Of a stretch of 64,000 bases of DNA, positions 46,851 to 56,644 are shown piece by piece. Under the pieces are notes generated by a model. The model searched no databases, was not told where the DNA came from, and worked only from the letters and a program-made list of their open reading frames with translations. A program made the translations under genes and the position numbers. Every line of letters begins with the position of its first letter. The first letter of the stretch is position 1. This stretch comes from Methanobacteriota archaeon (GTDB taxonomy: Archaea > Halobacteriota > Methanomicrobia > Methanomicrobiales > Methanomicrobiaceae), in NCBI GenBank assembly GCA_023396365.1, contig JAEWWL010000007.1:1288-65287 (forward strand). The letters run 5' to 3'.

Positions 46851-46987
46851 AATTAATTCCTTTATTAACATGCTCTTTAATAAATAAGATGTTTTGCTGT
46901 AAAGTTTAAAATAAAAATGCCAAAACGGGATTTAGACAAGTATAATAACTTTTGTTTCTAAACAAAAATATTAATTGTGTGATTTTC

Positions 46988-48325
46988 ATGTCAGATAAAA
47001 ATTATATCCATGCCGGTTTTGCCATTTTAATCCTTGCTCTTCTAACAGCAGTCGCACCTGCCCTTGCAGGCACAATATATTACTACCAGGACACTCCGGT
47101 AGCATCCCCCGAATATTTAACGCTTAAAGGTTTTTCAGTATCAGGAGAAACTGCCGAAATTTATCCGGGTGATGAAGTCACTGCAAAATACATGATTCAC
47201 TATGAACCCCAATCATACAATCAGCTTGTAATCGATCAGCCGGGTGGTCTTTATTTTGATCTTACCGATCCTGACGGGACTACAACAAGGCTTGGAACAA
47301 ATTACATAGGAAAAACAATAGAGCCTGATGCATATATCAGCATAACCGAATCATTCACCCCGGACAAGCCGGGAACATGGAAGATATCTCCTGCCTATAC
47401 TGTCGTCCAGGGAAACCTGATGTCAAAAAAATCAAATCCAAAGAACTGGCAGACAGCTGAAATTCATGTTAAAGGTATAAGCAAGCCCAGGCCTGATCTT
47501 ATAATCAGTGATGCCAAAGCCGAGTTTGATGCTGAATTGGGAATTATCTCCAGAATATCATACACAATAAAAAATACAGGCGATGCCGACTCACAGCCAA
47601 GCTCATCCATAATTTATATTGACGGATATGAAAACAGCATGATAAGCAGCACAGGGTATCTTCCATCCGGTGAGAGTGCAACAATTTTTGAGCCGGCAGG
47701 GGTAAAATACTCAGGAAGCAGCACTCTTTTAAAAATAGAGGCCGACTATGCCAAACTGATAAATGAATCTGACAAAGAAAACAACAAATTCGAGATAGTT
47801 GTTCAAAATCCGGGATATATACTCCCGAATAAGGATACCAAAAACGAAGCACCCGCATATGAAAGCCTGCCGGTTTTGGAGAGCAAACCTGTTGCAGCTA
47901 CTGAGTATAATGTCTGCCCCGTTCAGGGGGGATGCTTTGACATCTGCTTTTTATGCGCTGTTGCTGGTGTTTTGTCAATTCTGGTCTCAGTTCTTTCATT
48001 TGCACTTGGCTACTATTATGGATTAAATAAAAACTGTGAGCGTGAAGTCCTGTGGATGAGATCAAAATTAGAGATTTTAAGGACAGGAAGTAAAAATTCA
48101 TACTCTGCAAAGGAGATGAAAAAAGAAAATGTTGCAAAAGTAATGGAAGAAAACCTGGATAAGGCAGTAAAAAATCTTGATAAAAAAGATGAGAATAAAA
48201 AAGATAAAACTGCTGATAAAAATCCTGATAAACAGGATGAGAATAAAAAAGACAGTAGTGATGACAAAAAAGACAATAAAGATGAGATAAATAAAGAGAA
48301 TAAAGATAACAAAAAAACTGATTAG
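46988..48325 (+). CDS. secreted CARDB-like domain protein with single TM anchor and Lys/Asp/Asn-rich cytoplasmic tail
   Basis: Signal-like MSDKNYIHAGFAILILALLTAVAPALA. CARDB-like segment PDLIISDAKAEFD...YTIKNTGDADS...ESDKENNKFEI. TM segment FLCAVAGVLSILVSVLSFALGYYYGL, then the tail DKKDENKKDKTADKNPDKQDENKKDSSDDKKDNKDEINKENKDNKKTD. Confidence 0.7.
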   Translation: MSDKNYIHAGFAILILALLTAVAPALAGTIYYYQDTPVASPEYLTLKGFSVSGETAEIYPGDEVTAKYMIHYEPQSYNQLVIDQPGGLYFDLTDPDGTTTRLGTNYIGKTIEPDAYISITESFTPDKPGTWKISPAYTVVQGNLMSKKSNPKNWQTAEIHVKGISKPRPDLIISDAKAEFDAELGIISRISYTIKNTGDADSQPSSSIIYIDGYENSMISSTGYLPSGESATIFEPAGVKYSGSSTLLKIEADYAKLINESDKENNKFEIVVQNPGYILPNKDTKNEAPAYESLPVLESKPVAATEYNVCPVQGGCFDICFLCAVAGVLSILVSVLSFALGYYYGLNKNCEREVLWMRSKLEILRTGSKNSYSAKEMKKENVAKVMEENLDKAVKNLDKKDENKKDKTADKNPDKQDENKKDSSDDKKDNKDEINKENKDNKKTD

Positions 48326-50252: not shown

Positions 50253-50453
50253 TTGGGATCTCTTGCAGTATCTGCCGGACTCTGTCTTGCAGGTCTTCCC
50301 ATATTTTTTATGCTCTTCTTAATCCCGTTAATTCCCTTCCTGGCAAAAAAGCAAAAACAAAAGTATTGCCCTTTGTGCGGCTGGTCAGCATCAGGAGATG
50401 AAATATACTGCCCCTATGACAAGACTCTTCTTGTTGTTAAGGACGAGAATTAA
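50253..50453 (+). CDS. possible small membrane protein with C-terminal Zn-ribbon-like CxxC...C motif
   Basis: 66 aa from a TTG start. It has one or two hydrophobic segments, then KYCPLCGWSASGDEIYCPYD. No homology recognised, so it may not be expressed. Confidence 0.3.
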   Translation: MGSLAVSAGLCLAGLPIFFMLFLIPLIPFLAKKQKQKYCPLCGWSASGDEIYCPYDKTLLVVKDEN

Positions 50454-50503
50454 TGTAAAAAAAAAATTAAAAAAGAAAAAAGCCTGAAAAAATTATTTCT
50501 TAT

Positions 50504-51724
50504 TCACTGAACCGGTTTTCCGCAGTTTGCACAGAATTTTACACCCGGCTCTAAATCAGCACCACAGTTTGAGCATTTCAAAGAGCCCATGGGATTTCCA
50601 CAGTTAGGGCAGAATTTTGCACCTTTTGGAACATCAAAACTGCACTTTGGGCATTTTACTGTATCGCCGGACTGGGGTGAGCCGCAATTCGGGCAGAACT
50701 TTGCTCCGGGACTTAACGGATGACCGCATTTGACACAGGGGTTACCTGCACCCTGCTGATTAGAACCCTGCTGTTGTGGCTGTCCTGAGCCGAATGCTCC
50801 GGGCGCTCCACCCATCCCTGCACCCATGGACTGGCCCATGACATTTGCCATTGAAAAACCAGCACCCATGCCTGCACCCATTGTCGCAAAGCCTGCTCCC
50901 TCGCCGGGGCCGCCTCCCTGTGCTGCTCCCTGTCCGATATCCTCAATGGCTTTTCCGGTCTGGTACTGCATGTAGTTTACACCAAGTGCTGACATCGCAC
51001 CACGCTTGTCAACAGCCTGCTGCACCTCTTCAGGAAGGTTGATGTTTAATCCGGAGAATTTTGTAATCTTAAGGCCGTACTGCTCGGTCTCGCCTGTAAG
51101 CTTTGAGATGCATATCTGCTCTATCTCAGAAAGATATGCAGGCATGTCCAAAACACCCATATTCTGTTTGGATTTTAACTCTCCTAAGGTGTCATTCAGA
51201 ATCATTACAATCTGATCCTTAAGCCAGCCGATAATCTCGTCTGACTTTGTCATGCCCTTTGTACCTACAAACTGGGTGATAAGAAGCATCGGGTCAGTTA
51301 CCCTGTATGCATACTGACCAAAGACACGAAGCCTGACAACACCAAAATCAACATCACGGAAGCTTAAAGGCTCTGACGTTCCAAAATTTGCACGGAATTC
51401 ACGCTTCTGAACCCAGTAAAACTCTCCGATTTGCGTTACGCCGACAAGAGCTTTTCCAATGCCCTGCAGACCTGTGATGTTCTGCGTTGTCATTGCATAC
51501 CTGTCAGGACGGTCAAAGACCTGCATGGCTTTTCCGTCACGGAAGAATACACCGTATTCATCCTCCCTGACCATCACATTGTCATTCCACTTTATATTTC
51601 TTGGAAGACGCCAGATGATATTGTCTCCTTTGCTCTCCTCAACCCAGTAAAAGCCCTTTCTTGAGTCAGCACCATCTATGTCGCTTCCACCGTGGTAATC
51701 CGGACGTTTGCCAAACAGAGCCAT
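50504..51724 (-). CDS. SPFH/Band-7-like protein with Gly/Ala/Met-rich linker and three C-terminal zinc ribbons (YdjI/COG4260 type)
   Basis: 406 aa. The N-terminal ~260 aa resemble the YdjI-type SPFH domain (VREDEYGVFFRDGKAMQVFDRPDRYAMTT...EFYWVQKREFRANFGTSEPL...). A 65-aa G/A/M/Q linker follows, then three CxxC-x8-11-KFCxNCG units. Confidence 0.8.
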   Translation of the reverse strand: MALFGKRPDYHGGSDIDGADSRKGFYWVEESKGDNIIWRLPRNIKWNDNVMVREDEYGVFFRDGKAMQVFDRPDRYAMTTQNITGLQGIGKALVGVTQIGEFYWVQKREFRANFGTSEPLSFRDVDFGVVRLRVFGQYAYRVTDPMLLITQFVGTKGMTKSDEIIGWLKDQIVMILNDTLGELKSKQNMGVLDMPAYLSEIEQICISKLTGETEQYGLKITKFSGLNINLPEEVQQAVDKRGAMSALGVNYMQYQTGKAIEDIGQGAAQGGGPGEGAGFATMGAGMGAGFSMANVMGQSMGAGMGGAPGAFGSGQPQQQGSNQQGAGNPCVKCGHPLSPGAKFCPNCGSPQSGDTVKCPKCSFDVPKGAKFCPNCGNPMGSLKCSNCGADLEPGVKFCANCGKPVQ

Positions 51725-52261
51725 CTAAAATGCCCCCAGATCTGCCATTGTATTGTGCCTTTCCATAAATACATTTAAAAATTCAACAGCATTCTTCTTT
51801 GCCTGTGCACAGGATTTTTTCATTGCCAAAAAATCACCTGATTCTGCATGAAGAAGAATGCTGTCCGCCTCTTCGCCCATGCTCTCAACAAGACTTATCA
51901 TGTTGAGGTCATAGTCATAGAGCATATCAAGCTGATCTTCACCAATCCTGTAATTTGGAGAAATTCCTGAATATCCCTGATCTGCATGCCTTACTTTTTT
52001 CTCTGCAACGCCTACCTTTGATATCAGCTCACCAATCTCATTCATTACATCAAGGTTCAGTGATTTTGCCGCAGCATCTCTTGCACTTTCAAGAGGAGCG
52101 GACACACCGGTTTTAATCCTGTCTGCTAGCTGGACTCTTAAGAGGCTGTCTGCAATCCTTAAGTCCTCTCTCTTACGATATCCGCGAAATCCGGGGATTG
52201 CAAGCTGGATATTCTTTAAAAGCCCCCTGTCTTCTGTAACTCTGTCTCTTAAATCAACCAT
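51725..52261 (-). CDS. hypothetical all-helical cytoplasmic protein
   Basis: 178 aa with no TM segment and helix-favouring composition (conserved-looking PGFRGYRKREDLRIADSLLR near the N-terminus). Its stop codon directly abuts the ATG of the SPFH gene. No family recognised. Confidence 0.6.
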   Translation of the reverse strand: MVDLRDRVTEDRGLLKNIQLAIPGFRGYRKREDLRIADSLLRVQLADRIKTGVSAPLESARDAAAKSLNLDVMNEIGELISKVGVAEKKVRHADQGYSGISPNYRIGEDQLDMLYDYDLNMISLVESMGEEADSILLHAESGDFLAMKKSCAQAKKNAVEFLNVFMERHNTMADLGAF

Positions 52262-52294
52262 TTAACTCATCCCCTGAAAAAATAAAAAAGGGGT

Positions 52295-52639
52295 TTACTT
52301 CTTTGAATAAGTGTAAACCATAAAAGCCAGTGCAGCACCGACAATTATTCCGCCAAGGAGCGGTACAACCGGAACATCAGGACCGGCAGGGCGTGTTAAT
52401 ATTGAAACTACACCGATAATTCCAAGAAGTCCTGCAAATCCTGCAAGATATGTATTCTTCTCGCCGACACCCATTGAAAGCACTCCAAGGATCATTGCAA
52501 GACCAATGAAGAATACTGCAACTGTGTAATTCATATCCCAGTTTGATATCCATCCGACAAGGAGAGATACTCCAAACATAAGCGCTACTGCTGTCCATCC
52601 CATCTGAAATCTTTTGTCATCTTCTTTCATGTAAATCAA
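52295..52639 (-). CDS. small hypothetical membrane protein (3-4 TM)
   Basis: 114 aa (or 111 aa from ATG 52630), Gly-rich TM segments. Lies 5 nt downstream of the preceding Zn-ribbon gene. Confidence 0.6.
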   Translation of the reverse strand: MIYMKEDDKRFQMGWTAVALMFGVSLLVGWISNWDMNYTVAVFFIGLAMILGVLSMGVGEKNTYLAGFAGLLGIIGVVSILTRPAGPDVPVVPLLGGIIVGAALAFMVYTYSKK

Positions 52640-52644
52640 ACCTC

Positions 52645-53232
52645 CTAAATTCCCGGAGTATATTTGTTCTTATTTCTATAGAACGGCATATAAATTATTC
52701 TATAGGAATTGATGTTAAAGTCATAGTCTATCTCCTGAAGTGTTCCGGAAATATCAGCCTCATGCCTTAAAAACATAAATTCAGAATGCTGCTTTGCAGC
52801 CTCATTGTCAATTGCCGCAGGAATTCTTGCAACTCCGTTGAAACTTTTCTGCTCTTCAATTACAGGCGGCTCAAGCGTGAAATCAACATTCCATTCTTTA
52901 ACAATATCAGGCGCAATGTCGGCCGCACATACAAAAAGATTCTGGTTTCCGGCCATCTTCTTCTCGCTTTTAATAAATCTCATGATTCTGCCGCCGACAA
53001 TCTTTTCCCTGTTTACTTTTATGTCAGTGTTTATAACCCAGAAGGGCATGTATACCTTATCAGAACTTTCGTCTTTTTTGAATGCGGCAATTGTGCTGTC
53101 GACTTTATGGACATCACCGTTAAGAAACTCCATAACATTTTCGCATTTGCTGCAGACAAAGATGTTGTCTCTTTCCTTAGAGGTTAAAGGTGTGCCGCAG
53201 TTTGTGCATTTAAGCGTCTTTAAAGAAACCAT
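52645..53232 (-). CDS. Zn-ribbon protein, soluble paralogue (operon member C)
   Basis: 195 aa. N-terminal CTNCG...CSKC ribbon and two copies of a hydrophobic-Y/F-x-P-F-W/Y strand (VYMPFWVINT, IIYMPFYRNK), as in the two upstream genes. No TM segment. Confidence 0.65.
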   Translation of the reverse strand: MVSLKTLKCTNCGTPLTSKERDNIFVCSKCENVMEFLNGDVHKVDSTIAAFKKDESSDKVYMPFWVINTDIKVNREKIVGGRIMRFIKSEKKMAGNQNLFVCAADIAPDIVKEWNVDFTLEPPVIEEQKSFNGVARIPAAIDNEAAKQHSEFMFLRHEADISGTLQEIDYDFNINSYRIIYMPFYRNKNKYTPGI

Positions 53233-53234
53233 GA

Positions 53235-54269
53235 TTACTTCCTCCTGAGCAGTATCTCAACATTGCCGGTTTTTGCCGCCTGTGCTGCATCCGCACCCTG
53301 TCCCTGTTTTTTAAAGGCTGCTGTCAGGTTAATTGAGGGTTTTTGAAGATCTCCGACAATAATTTCTGATTTGTATCTGAACTGATAATAAGACATATAC
53401 AAAACTGCAAGTCCGACAATGCTTGTTGCAACAACAAGGCCGCTCTCCTCAAGAATTGAAAATCCAAGACCAATACCTGTTATTGCACCGCCAATGCTTC
53501 CTCCCGCACCAATCGAAAGACTCTGGTAGAGAGGATCTCCTGGTGCTCTTCCGGATAAAATTTCGCCTGTTATTCCGTCTGTGACTGCAAAGTAATCCCT
53601 GTCTGAATAGTTGTACCTTACAACCCAGAATGGATAGAATATAAGCTCAAAAGCCTTGGGATCGACAAAAATCTTTGAGAACGTAACTTTTTCAATTCTG
53701 CCTCTTGCGTTTGAATAAGTCATGTCGGCAATTTTTTTCCTGCCCTCTTCTAATGCATCACTTTTGGATTCTGTTGCTTCAAAGGTTGGAATCTCCTCCT
53801 CTTCATAAGGAACAATATCACCTTTGATATTTCGAAGGTAGGAAACACCGATATCCCCTGCATCGCATGCGATTATTGTATAGAGATAATCAGAATCCCA
53901 GACATTATTGTAATAATTTTTTGTTGTCTTTCCATCGTCATCCTTGTCTTCGGAATATCCGCAGATAATTGCTTTTCCTCTTCCTAAAAGACGCCAGAAC
54001 GGGAGATACAGAGGATAGCTTTCAGTGATCTCGCCTTTTTGCGGCAGATCACGAGCTTTAAATCCGCCTTTAAACCAGCTTTTTACATTTGAAACTGCCT
54101 TGTCGCGGTCAAGGACCATTTTATACATATATTTTGCAGTTCCCTCTTTTGACTCAAGAGAATGCACACTGCTGCAGAACGGGCATAAAACTATCTGCTC
54201 TCCCTCAAAAACTTCAACTCTTCCTCCGCAGGAAGGGCAGTTCATTCCAAAAACAATTCTTTCTGCCAT
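53235..54269 (-). CDS. Zn-ribbon membrane protein (operon member B)
   Basis: 344 aa. N-terminal CPSCGG...CPFC ribbon, repeated strands LYLPFWRLLG and IFYPFWVVRY, and two Gly-rich TM helices near the C-terminus. Confidence 0.65.
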   Translation of the reverse strand: MAERIVFGMNCPSCGGRVEVFEGEQIVLCPFCSSVHSLESKEGTAKYMYKMVLDRDKAVSNVKSWFKGGFKARDLPQKGEITESYPLYLPFWRLLGRGKAIICGYSEDKDDDGKTTKNYYNNVWDSDYLYTIIACDAGDIGVSYLRNIKGDIVPYEEEEIPTFEATESKSDALEEGRKKIADMTYSNARGRIEKVTFSKIFVDPKAFELIFYPFWVVRYNYSDRDYFAVTDGITGEILSGRAPGDPLYQSLSIGAGGSIGGAITGIGLGFSILEESGLVVATSIVGLAVLYMSYYQFRYKSEIIVGDLQKPSINLTAAFKKQGQGADAAQAAKTGNVEILLRRK

Positions 54270-54272
54270 AAT

Positions 54273-55052
54273 TTAAGCCTCCGCAGGTGTCTGTGGCTCT
54301 CCAGGCATCTCAGGTGTTTTTGTAACCTTCATTGCAAAGTAGTAGCCGGTAAAAAAAGCTGCAGCAACAAGGACGTAAAAAACAAAGGAGACAAGTATTC
54401 CCAAAAGGCCGCCTATAAAGGCAAGTCCGAAACTTCCTAATGCAACAAGCCCGTAAGGAATAGATGATCTTGCAGGATAATTTGAAGAATATACTTTTCC
54501 TGATGAGCCGTCGATTACAACTTTGTAGGACTGGCCTTCAAATTCATAGTCAACTTCATATATCGGGAAATATACTAAAGCCTGCTCTTTTCCGACTCCT
54601 TCAAGATCATTTATGTACGCATCCATTCCAAAATCGACATCGAGAACTTTTGCATCTCCCGGTTTGAAGGATTCATCAAAAATCCTGATATCACCGGCAG
54701 GAATTAAAAGATTATTCATTCCCGGAAGAATTGTTCCCTTTGCAGGTTTTATATCAATTTTTTCCTTTCCGTTTACATCTCTTCTAAACTGGTAAACCGG
54801 GAAATACTGCTTGCTTATAGCAATTATTTTTGCTTTTGATTCAAGCTCCTTATCAGCGTGTGGATTTGCGGTCCACCTTTTGAATATTCCCTTTGCTTTC
54901 TCATCAGTTATGAAGAACGGAAGGACATAATAAAACATCACACCGCTTCTGTCCACAAAAACAGTAGTGCCGCAGTATTTGCAGCTTGTTAAGTGGATGC
55001 CTGTACTGACATTCACATCTCCGCCGCATTTGGGGCATGCAAAACTTGACAT
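54273..55052 (-). CDS. Zn-ribbon membrane protein (operon member A)
   Basis: 259 aa. N-terminal CPKCGG...CKYCG ribbon, repeated strands YFPVYQFRRD and VYFPIYEVDY, and two C-terminal TM helices followed by a Pro/Glu tail. Confidence 0.65.
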   Translation of the reverse strand: MSSFACPKCGGDVNVSTGIHLTSCKYCGTTVFVDRSGVMFYYVLPFFITDEKAKGIFKRWTANPHADKELESKAKIIAISKQYFPVYQFRRDVNGKEKIDIKPAKGTILPGMNNLLIPAGDIRIFDESFKPGDAKVLDVDFGMDAYINDLEGVGKEQALVYFPIYEVDYEFEGQSYKVVIDGSSGKVYSSNYPARSSIPYGLVALGSFGLAFIGGLLGILVSFVFYVLVAAAFFTGYYFAMKVTKTPEMPGEPQTPAEA

Positions 55053-55174
55053 CTAAATTAAATACCACATAACGGATTAATAATTCTTTCGAATAAAACA
55101 AAAGGATTCATAATCCAGAAAAAATACGCAGAGATAAATGAAAAAAAGAAGATTAAAAAAAAAATTATGTTTTT

Positions 55175-55528
55175 TCAGGCTGACGGATTTTTGATAATCT
55201 TTACCTGAACATTTGCATCAGAGCCAAGTCCGATTAGTGCCCAGTTCTTTACAGTCATTGTCGTATCAGCTGTAAGGACGATTACCTTATCAAAGCTCTT
55301 TTTGCCTTTCTGATCATAATCGGATGCTGAATCAAATAATACATCAATATCTGTATCTGATGTTAAAGCAACCCTGTATGTTCCTGCCGAAAGAGAATAT
55401 ATGTACTGATCATTGTCAGGCACATTAATTGCCTCATCATAAATCACTTCATTTTGAGATGTGCACCCTGATGACAGGACAGAAAGAATCAAAACTAAAA
55501 AACCCAGACCAAGAATTATCTTTTTCAT
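55175..55528 (-). CDS. small secreted lipobox protein
   Basis: 117 aa. Signal peptide plus lipobox MKKIILGLGFLVLILSVLSSGC, and a beta-rich mature part. No family recognised. Confidence 0.55.
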   Translation of the reverse strand: MKKIILGLGFLVLILSVLSSGCTSQNEVIYDEAINVPDNDQYIYSLSAGTYRVALTSDTDIDVLFDSASDYDQKGKKSFDKVIVLTADTTMTVKNWALIGLGSDANVQVKIIKNPSA

Positions 55529-55638: not shown

Positions 55639-55983
55639 TCAGGCGACCTTTTCAAGAGTCAGACTGACTGTTTTTCCAAGTATAACATACTCAAATGAAA
55701 GCTTTTTGCCGTCATCGCTTATCCGTCCTGTTATCGGATTTCCAACGCCAAAATCAAGATCATATACTTTGTCACCTTTGGCTGTCCATTTGCCGTCTGT
55801 TCCGACACCATTTACTGATAAAATGAATGTTCCGTCTTCATGGAATGTCGATTCGATATTAATAAGAGGGATTGTGTACTCTTTCCAGTAACCTACAATG
55901 GGATCAGGCCCCATACATCCTGCAGCTGTTGATGCTGCAAGCAGACAAAAAACCAGACCAACCAGAAATCCAATCTGTTTCAT
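55639..55983 (-). CDS. small secreted lipobox protein (lipocalin-like beta-rich)
   Basis: 114 aa. MKQIGFLVGLVFCLLAASTAAGC, then a GYWKE...DGTF...DGKWTAKGDKVY pattern of short beta strands. Confidence 0.55.
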   Translation of the reverse strand: MKQIGFLVGLVFCLLAASTAAGCMGPDPIVGYWKEYTIPLINIESTFHEDGTFILSVNGVGTDGKWTAKGDKVYDLDFGVGNPITGRISDDGKKLSFEYVILGKTVSLTLEKVA

Positions 55984-56194: not shown

Positions 56195-56644
56195 TTACTC
56201 TCCCTTTAACACTGAAATTTCAAGAACGCCGTTTTTGCATTTGTATTTCATCGTATCTTTTTTAACGGCAGGAATTTTTACCTCTGCAAAATGCTTTACT
56301 CCGTCTGCAAAAGAGGAGATGTATAAAGTATTCTGATTTACAGATATCGCGGTGTTTGACATATCCGAGCCGGGAATATTTGCATATATAATTACATAGT
56401 CTCCGTCCTGGTGAACCTCGGTGTGCGGATTGTTTAAAACAAAGCCTTCATCAGAACTGTTTGCCACATTATTTTTCAGGCCTTCAATATTTGAGGGAAT
56501 TAGATCAACAGGAATTCTTCCGCCGGCTATAGTTATTGAAAAATTCTCATTGAAAGGGAATTTTCCGCTATGAATAGCCTGCTCAAATATTTTTCTGATT
56601 ATCTCGTTGAAATCCTTATCTGCATCCTTTTTATCTTCAGGCAT
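56195..56644 (-). CDS. Hsp20/alpha-crystallin-family small heat-shock protein
   Basis: 149 aa. The C-terminal alpha-crystallin pattern DGDYVIIYANIPGSDMSNTAISVNQNTLYISS...AEVKIPAVKKDTMKYKCKNGVLEISVLK matches the archaeal sHsp consensus (...PG...i.v....L.I......y...i.LP......a.y.NGVLei...K). Confidence 0.8.
   Translation of the reverse strand: MPEDKKDADKDFNEIIRKIFEQAIHSGKFPFNENFSITIAGGRIPVDLIPSNIEGLKNNVANSSDEGFVLNNPHTEVHQDGDYVIIYANIPGSDMSNTAISVNQNTLYISSFADGVKHFAEVKIPAVKKDTMKYKCKNGVLEISVLKGE

Follow-up and report, generated by a model that had tools for sequence, protein, structure and literature searches.

The stretch of DNA analysed here, hereafter the window, comprises 64,000 nucleotides (nt) of contig JAEWWL010000007.1 from a Methanobacteriota archaeon (GenBank assembly GCA_023396365.1), and all coordinates refer to it as a whole unless a locus is named. 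Its minus strand carries an operon that ends in a gene for an SPFH protein. The six open reading frames (ORFs) were labelled g1 to g6 in transcription order, and the product of g5 is referred to as H178. A preliminary description, made from the letters of the sequence, had listed six co-directional minus-strand genes with spacers of 0-33 nt; all of them were found at the coordinates given there, with spacers from g1 to g6 of 3, 2, 5, 33 and 0 nt, and the stop codon of g5 abuts the start of g6. The genes are as follows.

54273-55052, minus strand: g1, 259 amino acids (aa), assigned as a YdjG/SamG-family paralogue (ORF list, BLASTP)
53235-54269, minus strand: g2, 344 aa, assigned as a YdjG/SamG-family paralogue (ORF list, hhalign, AlphaFold2)
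52645-53232, minus strand: g3, 195 aa, assigned as a divergent YdjG-family paralogue without a transmembrane (TM) segment
52295-52639, minus strand: g4, small membrane protein with four TM segments, lineage-variable, without known family
51725-52261, minus strand: g5 (H178), 178 aa, soluble four-helix-bundle protein
50504-51724, minus strand: g6, 406 aa, soluble SPFH protein assigned to the YdjI/SamI type

The product of g4 is 114 aa long if translated from TTG, or 111 aa from the ATG at 52630, the start chosen by public gene callers. Public assemblies of this organism, e.g. the metagenome-assembled genome GCA_023443645.1, carry the six genes in unchanged order and with identical proteins. Its closest relatives with a name are Methanoplanus sp. 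FWC-SCC4 and a Methanomicrobium sp., which places the source of the window among the Methanomicrobiales.

The g6 protein matches Pfam Band_7_1 (PF13421) with an E-value of 1.3e-36 and 126.7 bits against a gathering cut-off of 24, and the match covers positions 2-210 of the 211 in the profile and residues 38-245 of the protein. The SPFH domain is followed by a Gly/Ala/Gln/Met-rich linker (approximately residues 250-326) and by a tail with six CxxC pairs at 330-401, that is, three C4 zinc ribbons, which DZR/Zn_Ribbon_1 models of Pfam match in three stretches (DZR 7.6e-25). Since g6 contains no hydrophobic or TM segment, it is expected to be soluble and to have no membrane anchor of its own; YdjI of Bacillus subtilis is likewise soluble, unlike FloA and FloT (PMC8581546). 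A Bacillus reference operon (L085) was located by an exact-match DNA search with a primer given by Scholz et al. (PMC8581546), and Pfam identified it as a B. subtilis-type pspA-ydjGHI operon, encoding in turn PspA_IM30, a protein with two TFIIB-type ribbons (YdjG), a TPM protein, and Band_7_1 with a ribbon. BLASTP aligned g6 with YdjI at 7e-17, colinearly from the SPFH domain across the low-complexity linker into the ribbon. By sequence, g6 is accordingly a YdjI/SamI-type (COG4260) SPFH protein with three ribbons, as had been proposed from the letters alone.

Each of g1, g2 and g3 has one N-terminal CxxC...CxxC ribbon. In g1 this C4 ribbon (C6, C9, C24 and C27) is followed by an alpha/beta domain and a C-terminal TM segment at about 216-234; BLASTP matches the protein to B. 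subtilis YdjG at 4e-7 with two more colinear segments, and g1 orthologues of 42-50% identity stand at the corresponding position in other loci. g1 and g2 also align with each other over 236 columns (E = 2e-8) and are hence paralogues. g2 in turn matches YdjG by BLASTP at 2e-5, with 260 residues colinear and the motifs Y(I/L)PFW and P.W.V.Y.Y...G.TG in common, and a 30-sequence profile of its family (A2) aligned with YdjG in hhalign at 98.0% (E = 2.3e-13, 186 columns) over the central non-ribbon domain. The AlphaFold2 (AF2) model of g2, with a mean predicted local distance difference test (pLDDT) of 80.6 and a predicted template modelling score (pTM) of 0.67, shows the ribbon followed by two modules, each made of a helix and a long beta-sheet; a helical TM hairpin (246-273 and 278-298) comes next, and a short tail ends the chain. 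A Foldseek search with the whole g2 model returned only noise, with TM-scores of about 0.07, and no solved-structure neighbour. In g3, which has its ribbon at C9, C12, C27 and C30, there is no TM segment and so no C-terminal anchor of the YdjG type. In hhalign, the g3 family (A5) matched that of g2 with a probability of 96.6% (E = 6.8e-10), but no further than across the ribbon and Y.PFW, the first motif, and the match of g3 to YdjG itself spans only 11 columns; the gene is nevertheless kept as the third of the triplet in at least 18 loci.

In Pfam and NCBIfam, g1-g3 gave ribbon matches below threshold only. In the description of Ravi et al. (PMC11237479), YdjG has two ribbons, an NTF2-like domain related to YpeB and one TM segment, and a faint PepSY match in g1 (Pfam E = 0.06) is the sole echo of the YpeB/NTF2-like assignment among the three proteins. 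Because no TM segment stands ahead of the ribbon and alpha/beta domains of g1-g3, these domains presumably face the cytoplasm. We assign g1, g2 and g3 to the YdjG/SamG family as paralogues, with g3 a divergent member. The CxxC pairs, the C-terminal TM segments and the hairpin in the g2 model bear out the earlier reading of g1 and g2 as ribbon proteins with TM segments and of g3 as a ribbon protein without any. The accompanying statement that none of the five partners of the SPFH protein could be placed is to be withdrawn for g1-g3; it still applies to g4 and g5, which match no Pfam family.

H178 had been read as a soluble, all-helical protein, and the analysis agrees: no TM segment was found, and the AF2 model (pLDDT 82.8, pTM 0.77) is an all-helical, closed up-down four-helix bundle with helices at 31-66, 70-91, 108-141 and 144-173 and an N-terminal stretch of 24 residues at low confidence. 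An alignment of the family (A1) contains 27 invariant residues, mainly in the N-terminal peptide DRGLLK..IPGFRGYRKREDLRIADSLLR and the loop motif RHAxQGYSG. Each of the 27 lies either in this peptide or at one and the same pole of the bundle, which points to a single functional surface on H178.

No Pfam model matched g5, and its homologues are all annotated as hypothetical. An exhaustive profile search gave at least 1,374 clusters at 50% identity (E <= 1e-3), or 781 at E <= 1e-10, and a search seeded with distant H178 members only gave at least 3,404 clusters at 90% identity; the named distant members are from Chloroflexota, Anaerolineae, Abditibacteriales and Eremiobacterota. A tblastn search of g5 against all plasmids produced no match. 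The only curated model matched by H178 relatives is NCBIfam NF047596, the 'LIMLP_15305 family' of Leptospira, which has the same length as H178 and matches it end to end. Against its curated cut-off of 210 bits, g5 scored 26.8 and the bacterial relatives 42-61. Since this model is a narrow Leptospira equivalog without an attached function and scores of 27-61 bits are far below its cut-off, H178 is related to this equivalog without being a member of it, and belongs to a much larger unnamed superfamily around LIMLP_15305. According to a single table row in PMC7567364, LIMLP_15305 adjoins the peroxide-induced small RNA rh4345, which overlaps LIMLP_15310. No description of the H178 family was found in the literature on Band_7_1/PF13421, COG4260 or LIMLP_15305.

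Some members of the family are fused to other domains. Seven representative clusters (P0024, P0258, P0264, P0268, P0273, P0279 and P0300) carry an N-terminal DZR/Zn_Ribbon_1 and a Pro-rich linker, the ribbon being of the same DZR type as that on the SPFH tail, which speaks for a common mode of tethering, and one member (P0340) has a C-terminal DUF4178. In the 266-aa protein P0357, H178 residues 1-85 are joined directly to Band_7_1 positions 68-210; this protein comes from a single Logan contig and may be the product of a deletion or an assembly artefact.

Known helical families were compared with g5 and rejected. That g5 is a hidden PspA/ESCRT-III protein is contradicted by a negative BLASTP comparison with PspA, an hhalign probability of 0.2% and the closed four-helix-bundle fold, which differs from the long alpha1-alpha2 hairpin with additional helices packed against it that defines ESCRT-III; no ESCRT-III, PspA or Vipp1 chain occurs among the Foldseek PDB matches listed for g5, and none in the PDB profile search. 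A relationship to TelA, the helical protein encoded at the Paracoccus locus described below, received 0.8% in hhalign. LemA is known to pair with TPM and DUF2207 proteins; g5 gave no Pfam LemA match, and no LemA-like bundle was noticed among the PDB and Foldseek hits listed. In the PDB overall, g5 has no significant sequence (profile) match and no Foldseek match at E <= 0.001.

Four hydrophobic segments were found in g4, in line with the three to four TM segments counted earlier. Recognisable g4 homologues are those of Methanomicrobiales; in DHVE2 and some Thermoplasmata the same slot holds similar small proteins with 2-4, mostly 3-4, predicted TM segments (clusters TM114, c10 and c25). None of 18 g4-slot proteins matched Pfam at E <= 0.01, so that LiaI-LiaF-TM and other small TM families linked to the phage shock protein (PSP) response were rejected (0 of 18 members), as was a relationship of g4 to YdjH (E = 0.8). 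g4 is the least conserved part of the operon.

Conservation of the gene neighbourhood

To compare gene neighbourhoods, 80 genome loci around g6 homologues (39-75% identity) were collected from Methanomicrobiales/Methanocorpusculum, the DHVE2 group, many Thermoplasmatota, Methanocellaceae and Nitrososphaerota, and the window proteins were used as tblastn queries. Dozens of genomes, spread over several archaeal phyla, have the operon genes together, which is far more clustering than chance would give. H178 is encoded directly 5' of the SPFH gene in every one of the 77 loci whose sequence extends 650 nt or more upstream; from the H178 stop to the extrapolated SPFH start, the gap has a median of -1 nt. 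A YdjG-like gene adjoins this dyad in 66 of the 80 loci, and the following arrangements were counted.

Triplet or pair of YdjG-like genes upstream, as in the window: 18 loci
Triplet downstream, in g1-g2-g3 order: 5 loci
Single copy downstream, same strand: 30 loci
Single copy downstream, opposite strand: 11 loci

The g1-g2-g3 order is retained with the triplet 3' of the SPFH gene in L041, L043, L044 and L053. Such conservation of partner genes beside YdjI-type genes argues for a dedicated membrane-associated module, as the preliminary description had supposed.

The census was complemented by reverse sampling, in which seven contexts were found from distant H178 members: L086 (Chloroflexota), L087 (Eremiobacterota), L088, L089, L092, L093 and L094. 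In all seven, a gene for Band_7_1 with DZR lies directly 3' of H178, and L088 and L089 also have a YdjG-like gene directly upstream. Neither L086 nor L092 contains a recognisable YdjG-like gene. In L092 (1348-3852), a DUF2207 membrane protein of about 620 aa and a protein of about 172 aa with a C-terminal zinc ribbon precede the H178-SPFH pair, and at the equivalent positions L086 (1-2451) encodes a 620-aa protein and a 173-aa ribbon protein. The SPFH gene was also found with a YdjG-family gene in Proteobacteria: in Paracoccus ferrooxidans pFER4 (L090, 1764-6482) and on a Vibrio coralliilyticus plasmid (L091, 3953-6106), Band_7_1 is followed by a YdjG-family gene (hhalign 98% in each), with genes for TelA and a DUF2927 protein upstream in Paracoccus. 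A gene for a TIR-domain protein lies near the Vibrio pair.

The module is not specifically archaeal, contrary to what had been proposed, since the H178-SPFH dyad also occurs in Chloroflexota, Eremiobacterota and their relatives and the SPFH-YdjG pair in Paracoccus and Vibrio. The coupling of the H178 and SPFH genes across archaea and several bacterial phyla is near-absolute. H178 is the most consistently linked and the least understood component of the operon.

B. subtilis PspA and YdjH gave no tblastn match in the window or in the more than 80 loci, and none of the six operon proteins matched Pfam PspA_IM30 or TPM_phosphatase. The earlier remark that no PspA/Vipp1 is recognisable in the operon is consistent with these results, searches by Pfam, BLASTP, tblastn and hhalign all being negative.

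The proximity of cdc48 and a presumed hsp20 gene, pointed out earlier as a further stress unit on the same strand, proved incidental: no more than 2 of the 80 loci have cdc48 close to the module, and a functional link was rejected as not conserved. For the 'hsp20' ORF (56195-56644, minus strand), Pfam gave nothing at E <= 0.001, and the public annotation lists no Pfam record either; the C-terminal half of its product looks alpha-crystallin-like by eye, and the ORF may encode a very divergent small heat-shock protein.

A gene for an M48 peptidase stands beside the module in about nine Thermoplasmatales loci, the link being confined to this one clade. L027-L031, L038 and L052 have in common the order S-adenosylmethionine-dependent methyltransferase, H178, SPFH, an opposite-strand YdjG-like gene and an M48 (HtpX-type) membrane metalloprotease, which is followed by a GH18+PKD protein of about 900 aa; some of these contigs are partial. 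For this clade, the association with M48 is a hint of a part in membrane-protein quality control.

Boundaries and flanking genes

Three features delimit the operon in the window.

55141-55164, minus strand: oligo-T tracts T10 and T7, just 3' of the stop of the upstream 117-aa gene
55076-55100, minus strand: candidate archaeal promoter region with the A/T-rich TATA-like elements TTTTATT and AATTATTAAT, 24-48 nt 5' of the g1 ATG
50457-50492, minus strand: oligo-T tracts T6, T5, T4 and T10, directly 3' of the g6 stop codon

Transcription in archaea terminates at oligo-T tracts. The T10 and T7 tracts are probably the terminator of the 117-aa gene, which would set it apart from the operon, and the run after g6 is likely to be the terminator of the operon itself. 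The TATA-like elements 5' of g1, read directly from the letters, are a candidate promoter. The tight packing of the genes and the flanking oligo-T tracts would fit a self-contained six-gene transcription unit.

Convergent on g6, at 50253-50453 on the plus strand, is an ORF of 66 aa with a hydrophobic N-terminal segment and a zinc-ribbon-like tail (CPLC...C.Y). It has no Pfam match and, if a real gene, may encode another tiny membrane-anchored ribbon protein beside the module. Between the cdc48 unit and the operon lie two minus-strand genes (55175-55528 and 55639-55983) for small proteins with signal-peptide- or lipobox-like N-termini (...SSGC and ...AAGC); both are singletons in the 80-locus census, and one has a faint DUF5640 match. 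A CARDB-domain surface protein (public Pfam record) is encoded at 46952-48325 on the plus strand and is unrelated to the module; after a TM-like segment, its C-terminal tail is extremely rich in Lys, Asp, Glu and Asn.

Proposed function and alternative explanations

From the assignment of g6 and g1-g3, a hypothesis regarding the function may be put forward: on balance, and by analogy, the operon would be a PspA-independent relative of the B. subtilis PspA-YdjGHI (SamGHI) membrane-stress module. In Bacillus, YdjI reaches membrane foci only together with YdjG and YdjH, and recruits PspA (PMC8581546); SamI restrains stress signalling by SamGH and, by prediction, assembles into a higher-order oligomer (bioRxiv 10.64898/2026.02.06.704340). 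In the archaeal version, g1, g2 and the soluble paralogue g3 would form a hetero-oligomeric receptor at the membrane that recruits the SPFH protein, which would in turn form a higher-order oligomer on the cytoplasmic membrane face, tethered via its linker and ribbons. H178, made in a fixed proportion to the SPFH protein, could bind it through the conserved pole and the N-terminal peptide and serve as the helical adaptor or effector of the complex. In the SPFH loci of other lineages, this helical role would be taken by PspA (Firmicutes) and possibly by TelA (Paracoccus), and g4 would be an accessory membrane subunit in some lineages. The likely role of the whole, judged from the Bacillus system, would be to sense or buffer membrane perturbation.

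Several points weigh against this reading. The function of the archaeal members is derived entirely by analogy. No YdjG-like gene stands beside the dyad in 14 of the 80 loci; some of these are truncated contigs, but L033, L034 and L042 are not, so the module may do without the anchor, or the anchor gene may lie at another site. Two-hybrid assays in Bacillus put YdjI in direct contact with the TPM protein YdjH and not with YdjG (PMC8581546), and as YdjH is absent here, direct docking of the SPFH protein on YdjG-like proteins is an assumption. H178 has no detectable similarity to PspA, to TelA or to solved structures beyond generic helical bundles, and it is cast as the counterpart of PspA solely for being the helical protein of the operon. 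Finally, the negative search for PspA/ESCRT-III took in the window and the fetched loci only, and by BLAST only, and the genome may encode such a protein at another place.

A bolder version, which we regard as rather unlikely, is that H178 is an obligate partner of YdjI-type SPFH scaffolds and a new membrane-maintenance effector that replaces PspA/ESCRT-III with an unrelated fold. If it were true, the SPFH-YdjG pair would be an ancient core machine to which helical effectors, namely PspA, TelA and H178, were recruited lineage by lineage.

Other explanations assign H178 a different task at the same scaffold. It might be a structural subunit that supplies in trans the wall or lid of a two-gene SPFH cage tethered via the ribbons and the YdjG-like anchors. 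H178 would then make up for the long coiled coil with which canonical SPFH proteins (HflK/C, flotillin, stomatin and QmcA) build closed cages and which is missing from Band_7_1 proteins. SPFH cages depend on C-terminal helices, according to the discussion of bioRxiv 10.64898/2026.02.06.704340 and to studies that PMC11188069 cites as its reference 47, and the SPFH domain of g6 runs straight into a low-complexity linker with no coiled coil, while H178 is a bundle of four long helices of about 22-36 residues; the strict coupling and the abutting or overlapping genes are also what would be expected of an obligate heteromer. We nevertheless consider it unlikely, as YdjI of B. subtilis does its work, and is predicted to form oligomers, with no H178 present (bioRxiv 10.64898/2026.02.06.704340), and H178 is modelled as a closed, compact bundle and not as an extended coiled coil. 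Alternatively, the SPFH protein could act as a signalling brake, sequestering H178 at the membrane in the unstressed cell and releasing it on membrane stress to act on a cytoplasmic target; H178 would then be the system's output and not a membrane effector. This would follow the regulatory logic described for SamI and SamGH (bioRxiv 10.64898/2026.02.06.704340), which can be likened also to the restraint of PspF by PspA; H178 is soluble and displays one highly conserved charged surface, and the operon encodes no transcription factor, so that any output must be protein-protein. Against such a brake, to which we give similarly little credence, are the lack of a DNA-binding or enzymatic domain signature in H178, the lack of a conserved target gene in the neighbourhoods and the recurrent fusion of H178 to DZR, which suggests permanent tethering and not release.

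Two further explanations were weighed. That the operon encodes a membrane-protein quality-control scaffold, comparable to HflK/C-FtsH or stomatin-NfeD and corralling Cdc48 or an HtpX-type M48 protease, appears quite improbable to us: the M48 peptidase gene adjoins the module in about nine Thermoplasmatales loci, cdc48 is situated 1.6 kb upstream in the window, and SPFH proteins commonly regulate membrane proteases (general knowledge, summarised in the discussion of bioRxiv 10.64898/2026.02.06.704340), but the first of these links is limited to a single clade, the second recurs too rarely in the census, and the operon in the window encodes no NfeD, FtsH or other protease. An anti-virus defence system of the abortive-infection type, with an SPFH scaffold and zinc-ribbon sensors, has almost no support and is very improbable. 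A weak PADLOC match of g3 to the candidate family PDC-M46A (E = 1.4e-4) and the TIR-domain gene near the Vibrio pair speak for it; the other five proteins have no PADLOC match, and the module is conserved across archaeal phyla, keeps its order within lineages and lies in housekeeping neighbourhoods, unlike patchy defence islands.

Comparison with known systems

The nearest known system is the Bacillus pspA-ydjGHI operon. It likewise combines, in one operon that includes a soluble helical protein, a soluble Band_7_1 SPFH protein with a linker and a C-terminal ribbon (YdjI, corresponding to g6) and a protein with zinc ribbon, alpha/beta domain and TM segment (YdjG/SamG, corresponding to g1-g3). 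With g6 of the YdjI type and g1-g3 of the YdjG type, the two operons have in common two of the three components that accompany PspA in Bacillus. The differences are considerable: the operon in the window contains neither a PspA_IM30 gene nor a TPM-domain YdjH, and has three YdjG paralogues with one ribbon each in place of a single YdjG with two; the g2 model has a TM hairpin, whereas one TM segment was described for YdjG (PMC11237479); the SPFH tail bears three ribbons; and H178 and the small four-TM protein are extra families. The operon resembles PspA-YdjGHI in outline, lacks its PspA and TPM features and is not a strict PSP operon.

SPFH-NfeD operons (stomatin/PH1511-PH1510, QmcA-YbbJ, FloT-YuaF and YqiK-YqiJ) are similar in the locking of an SPFH gene to a partner gene and in assembly at the membrane. 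Here, however, the partner is a soluble four-helix bundle and not an NfeD membrane protein with an OB-fold, and the SPFH protein is unanchored; no operon protein matched NfeD in Pfam or NCBIfam. With HflK/C-FtsH and other SPFH cages, the operon shares a scaffold expected to oligomerise on a membrane surface. Unlike the cages of the HflK/C type, g6 has no TM anchor and no long coiled-coil region, and a protease is missing from the operon.

An archaeal SPFH + coiled-coil + zinc-ribbon protein has also been reported in the Meth_adaptin ESCRT loci of Makarova et al. 2024 (PMC11188069). Like the operon in the window, these loci encode further zinc-ribbon proteins beside the SPFH protein with its ribbon, and a role in membrane dynamics was proposed for them (PMC11188069). 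They are defined by Vps4, ESCRT-III, adaptin-appendage, GOLD and ProX, none of which occurs in the operon of the window or among the 80 related loci. The Paracoccus (TelA-DUF2927-SPFH-YdjG-like) and Vibrio loci have the same SPFH-YdjG-like core, with a helical protein, TelA, also in Paracoccus; unlike the operon in the window, they have no H178.

An association of YdjG and YdjI was already noted for Firmicutes (PMC11237479). The H178 family, its coupling to Band_7_1 across phyla and the triplicated YdjG set were not found described in the literature. To our knowledge, work on the YdjI/SamI branch of SPFH proteins has been confined to B. subtilis, where the link to PspA has guided its interpretation. 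The comparison separates two layers: the SPFH-YdjG pair is widespread in bacteria and archaea, and PspA is only one among several partners that can stand beside it. In archaea, and in a number of bacterial phyla that have received little study, this place is taken by H178, a sizeable protein family with neither a Pfam model nor a name, distinguished by an unusually sharp conserved motif and near-zero gene spacing. The operon offers an entry point both to membrane-stress handling in these archaeal lineages and to what soluble SPFH scaffolds do at membranes where no ESCRT-III-like protein is encoded alongside.

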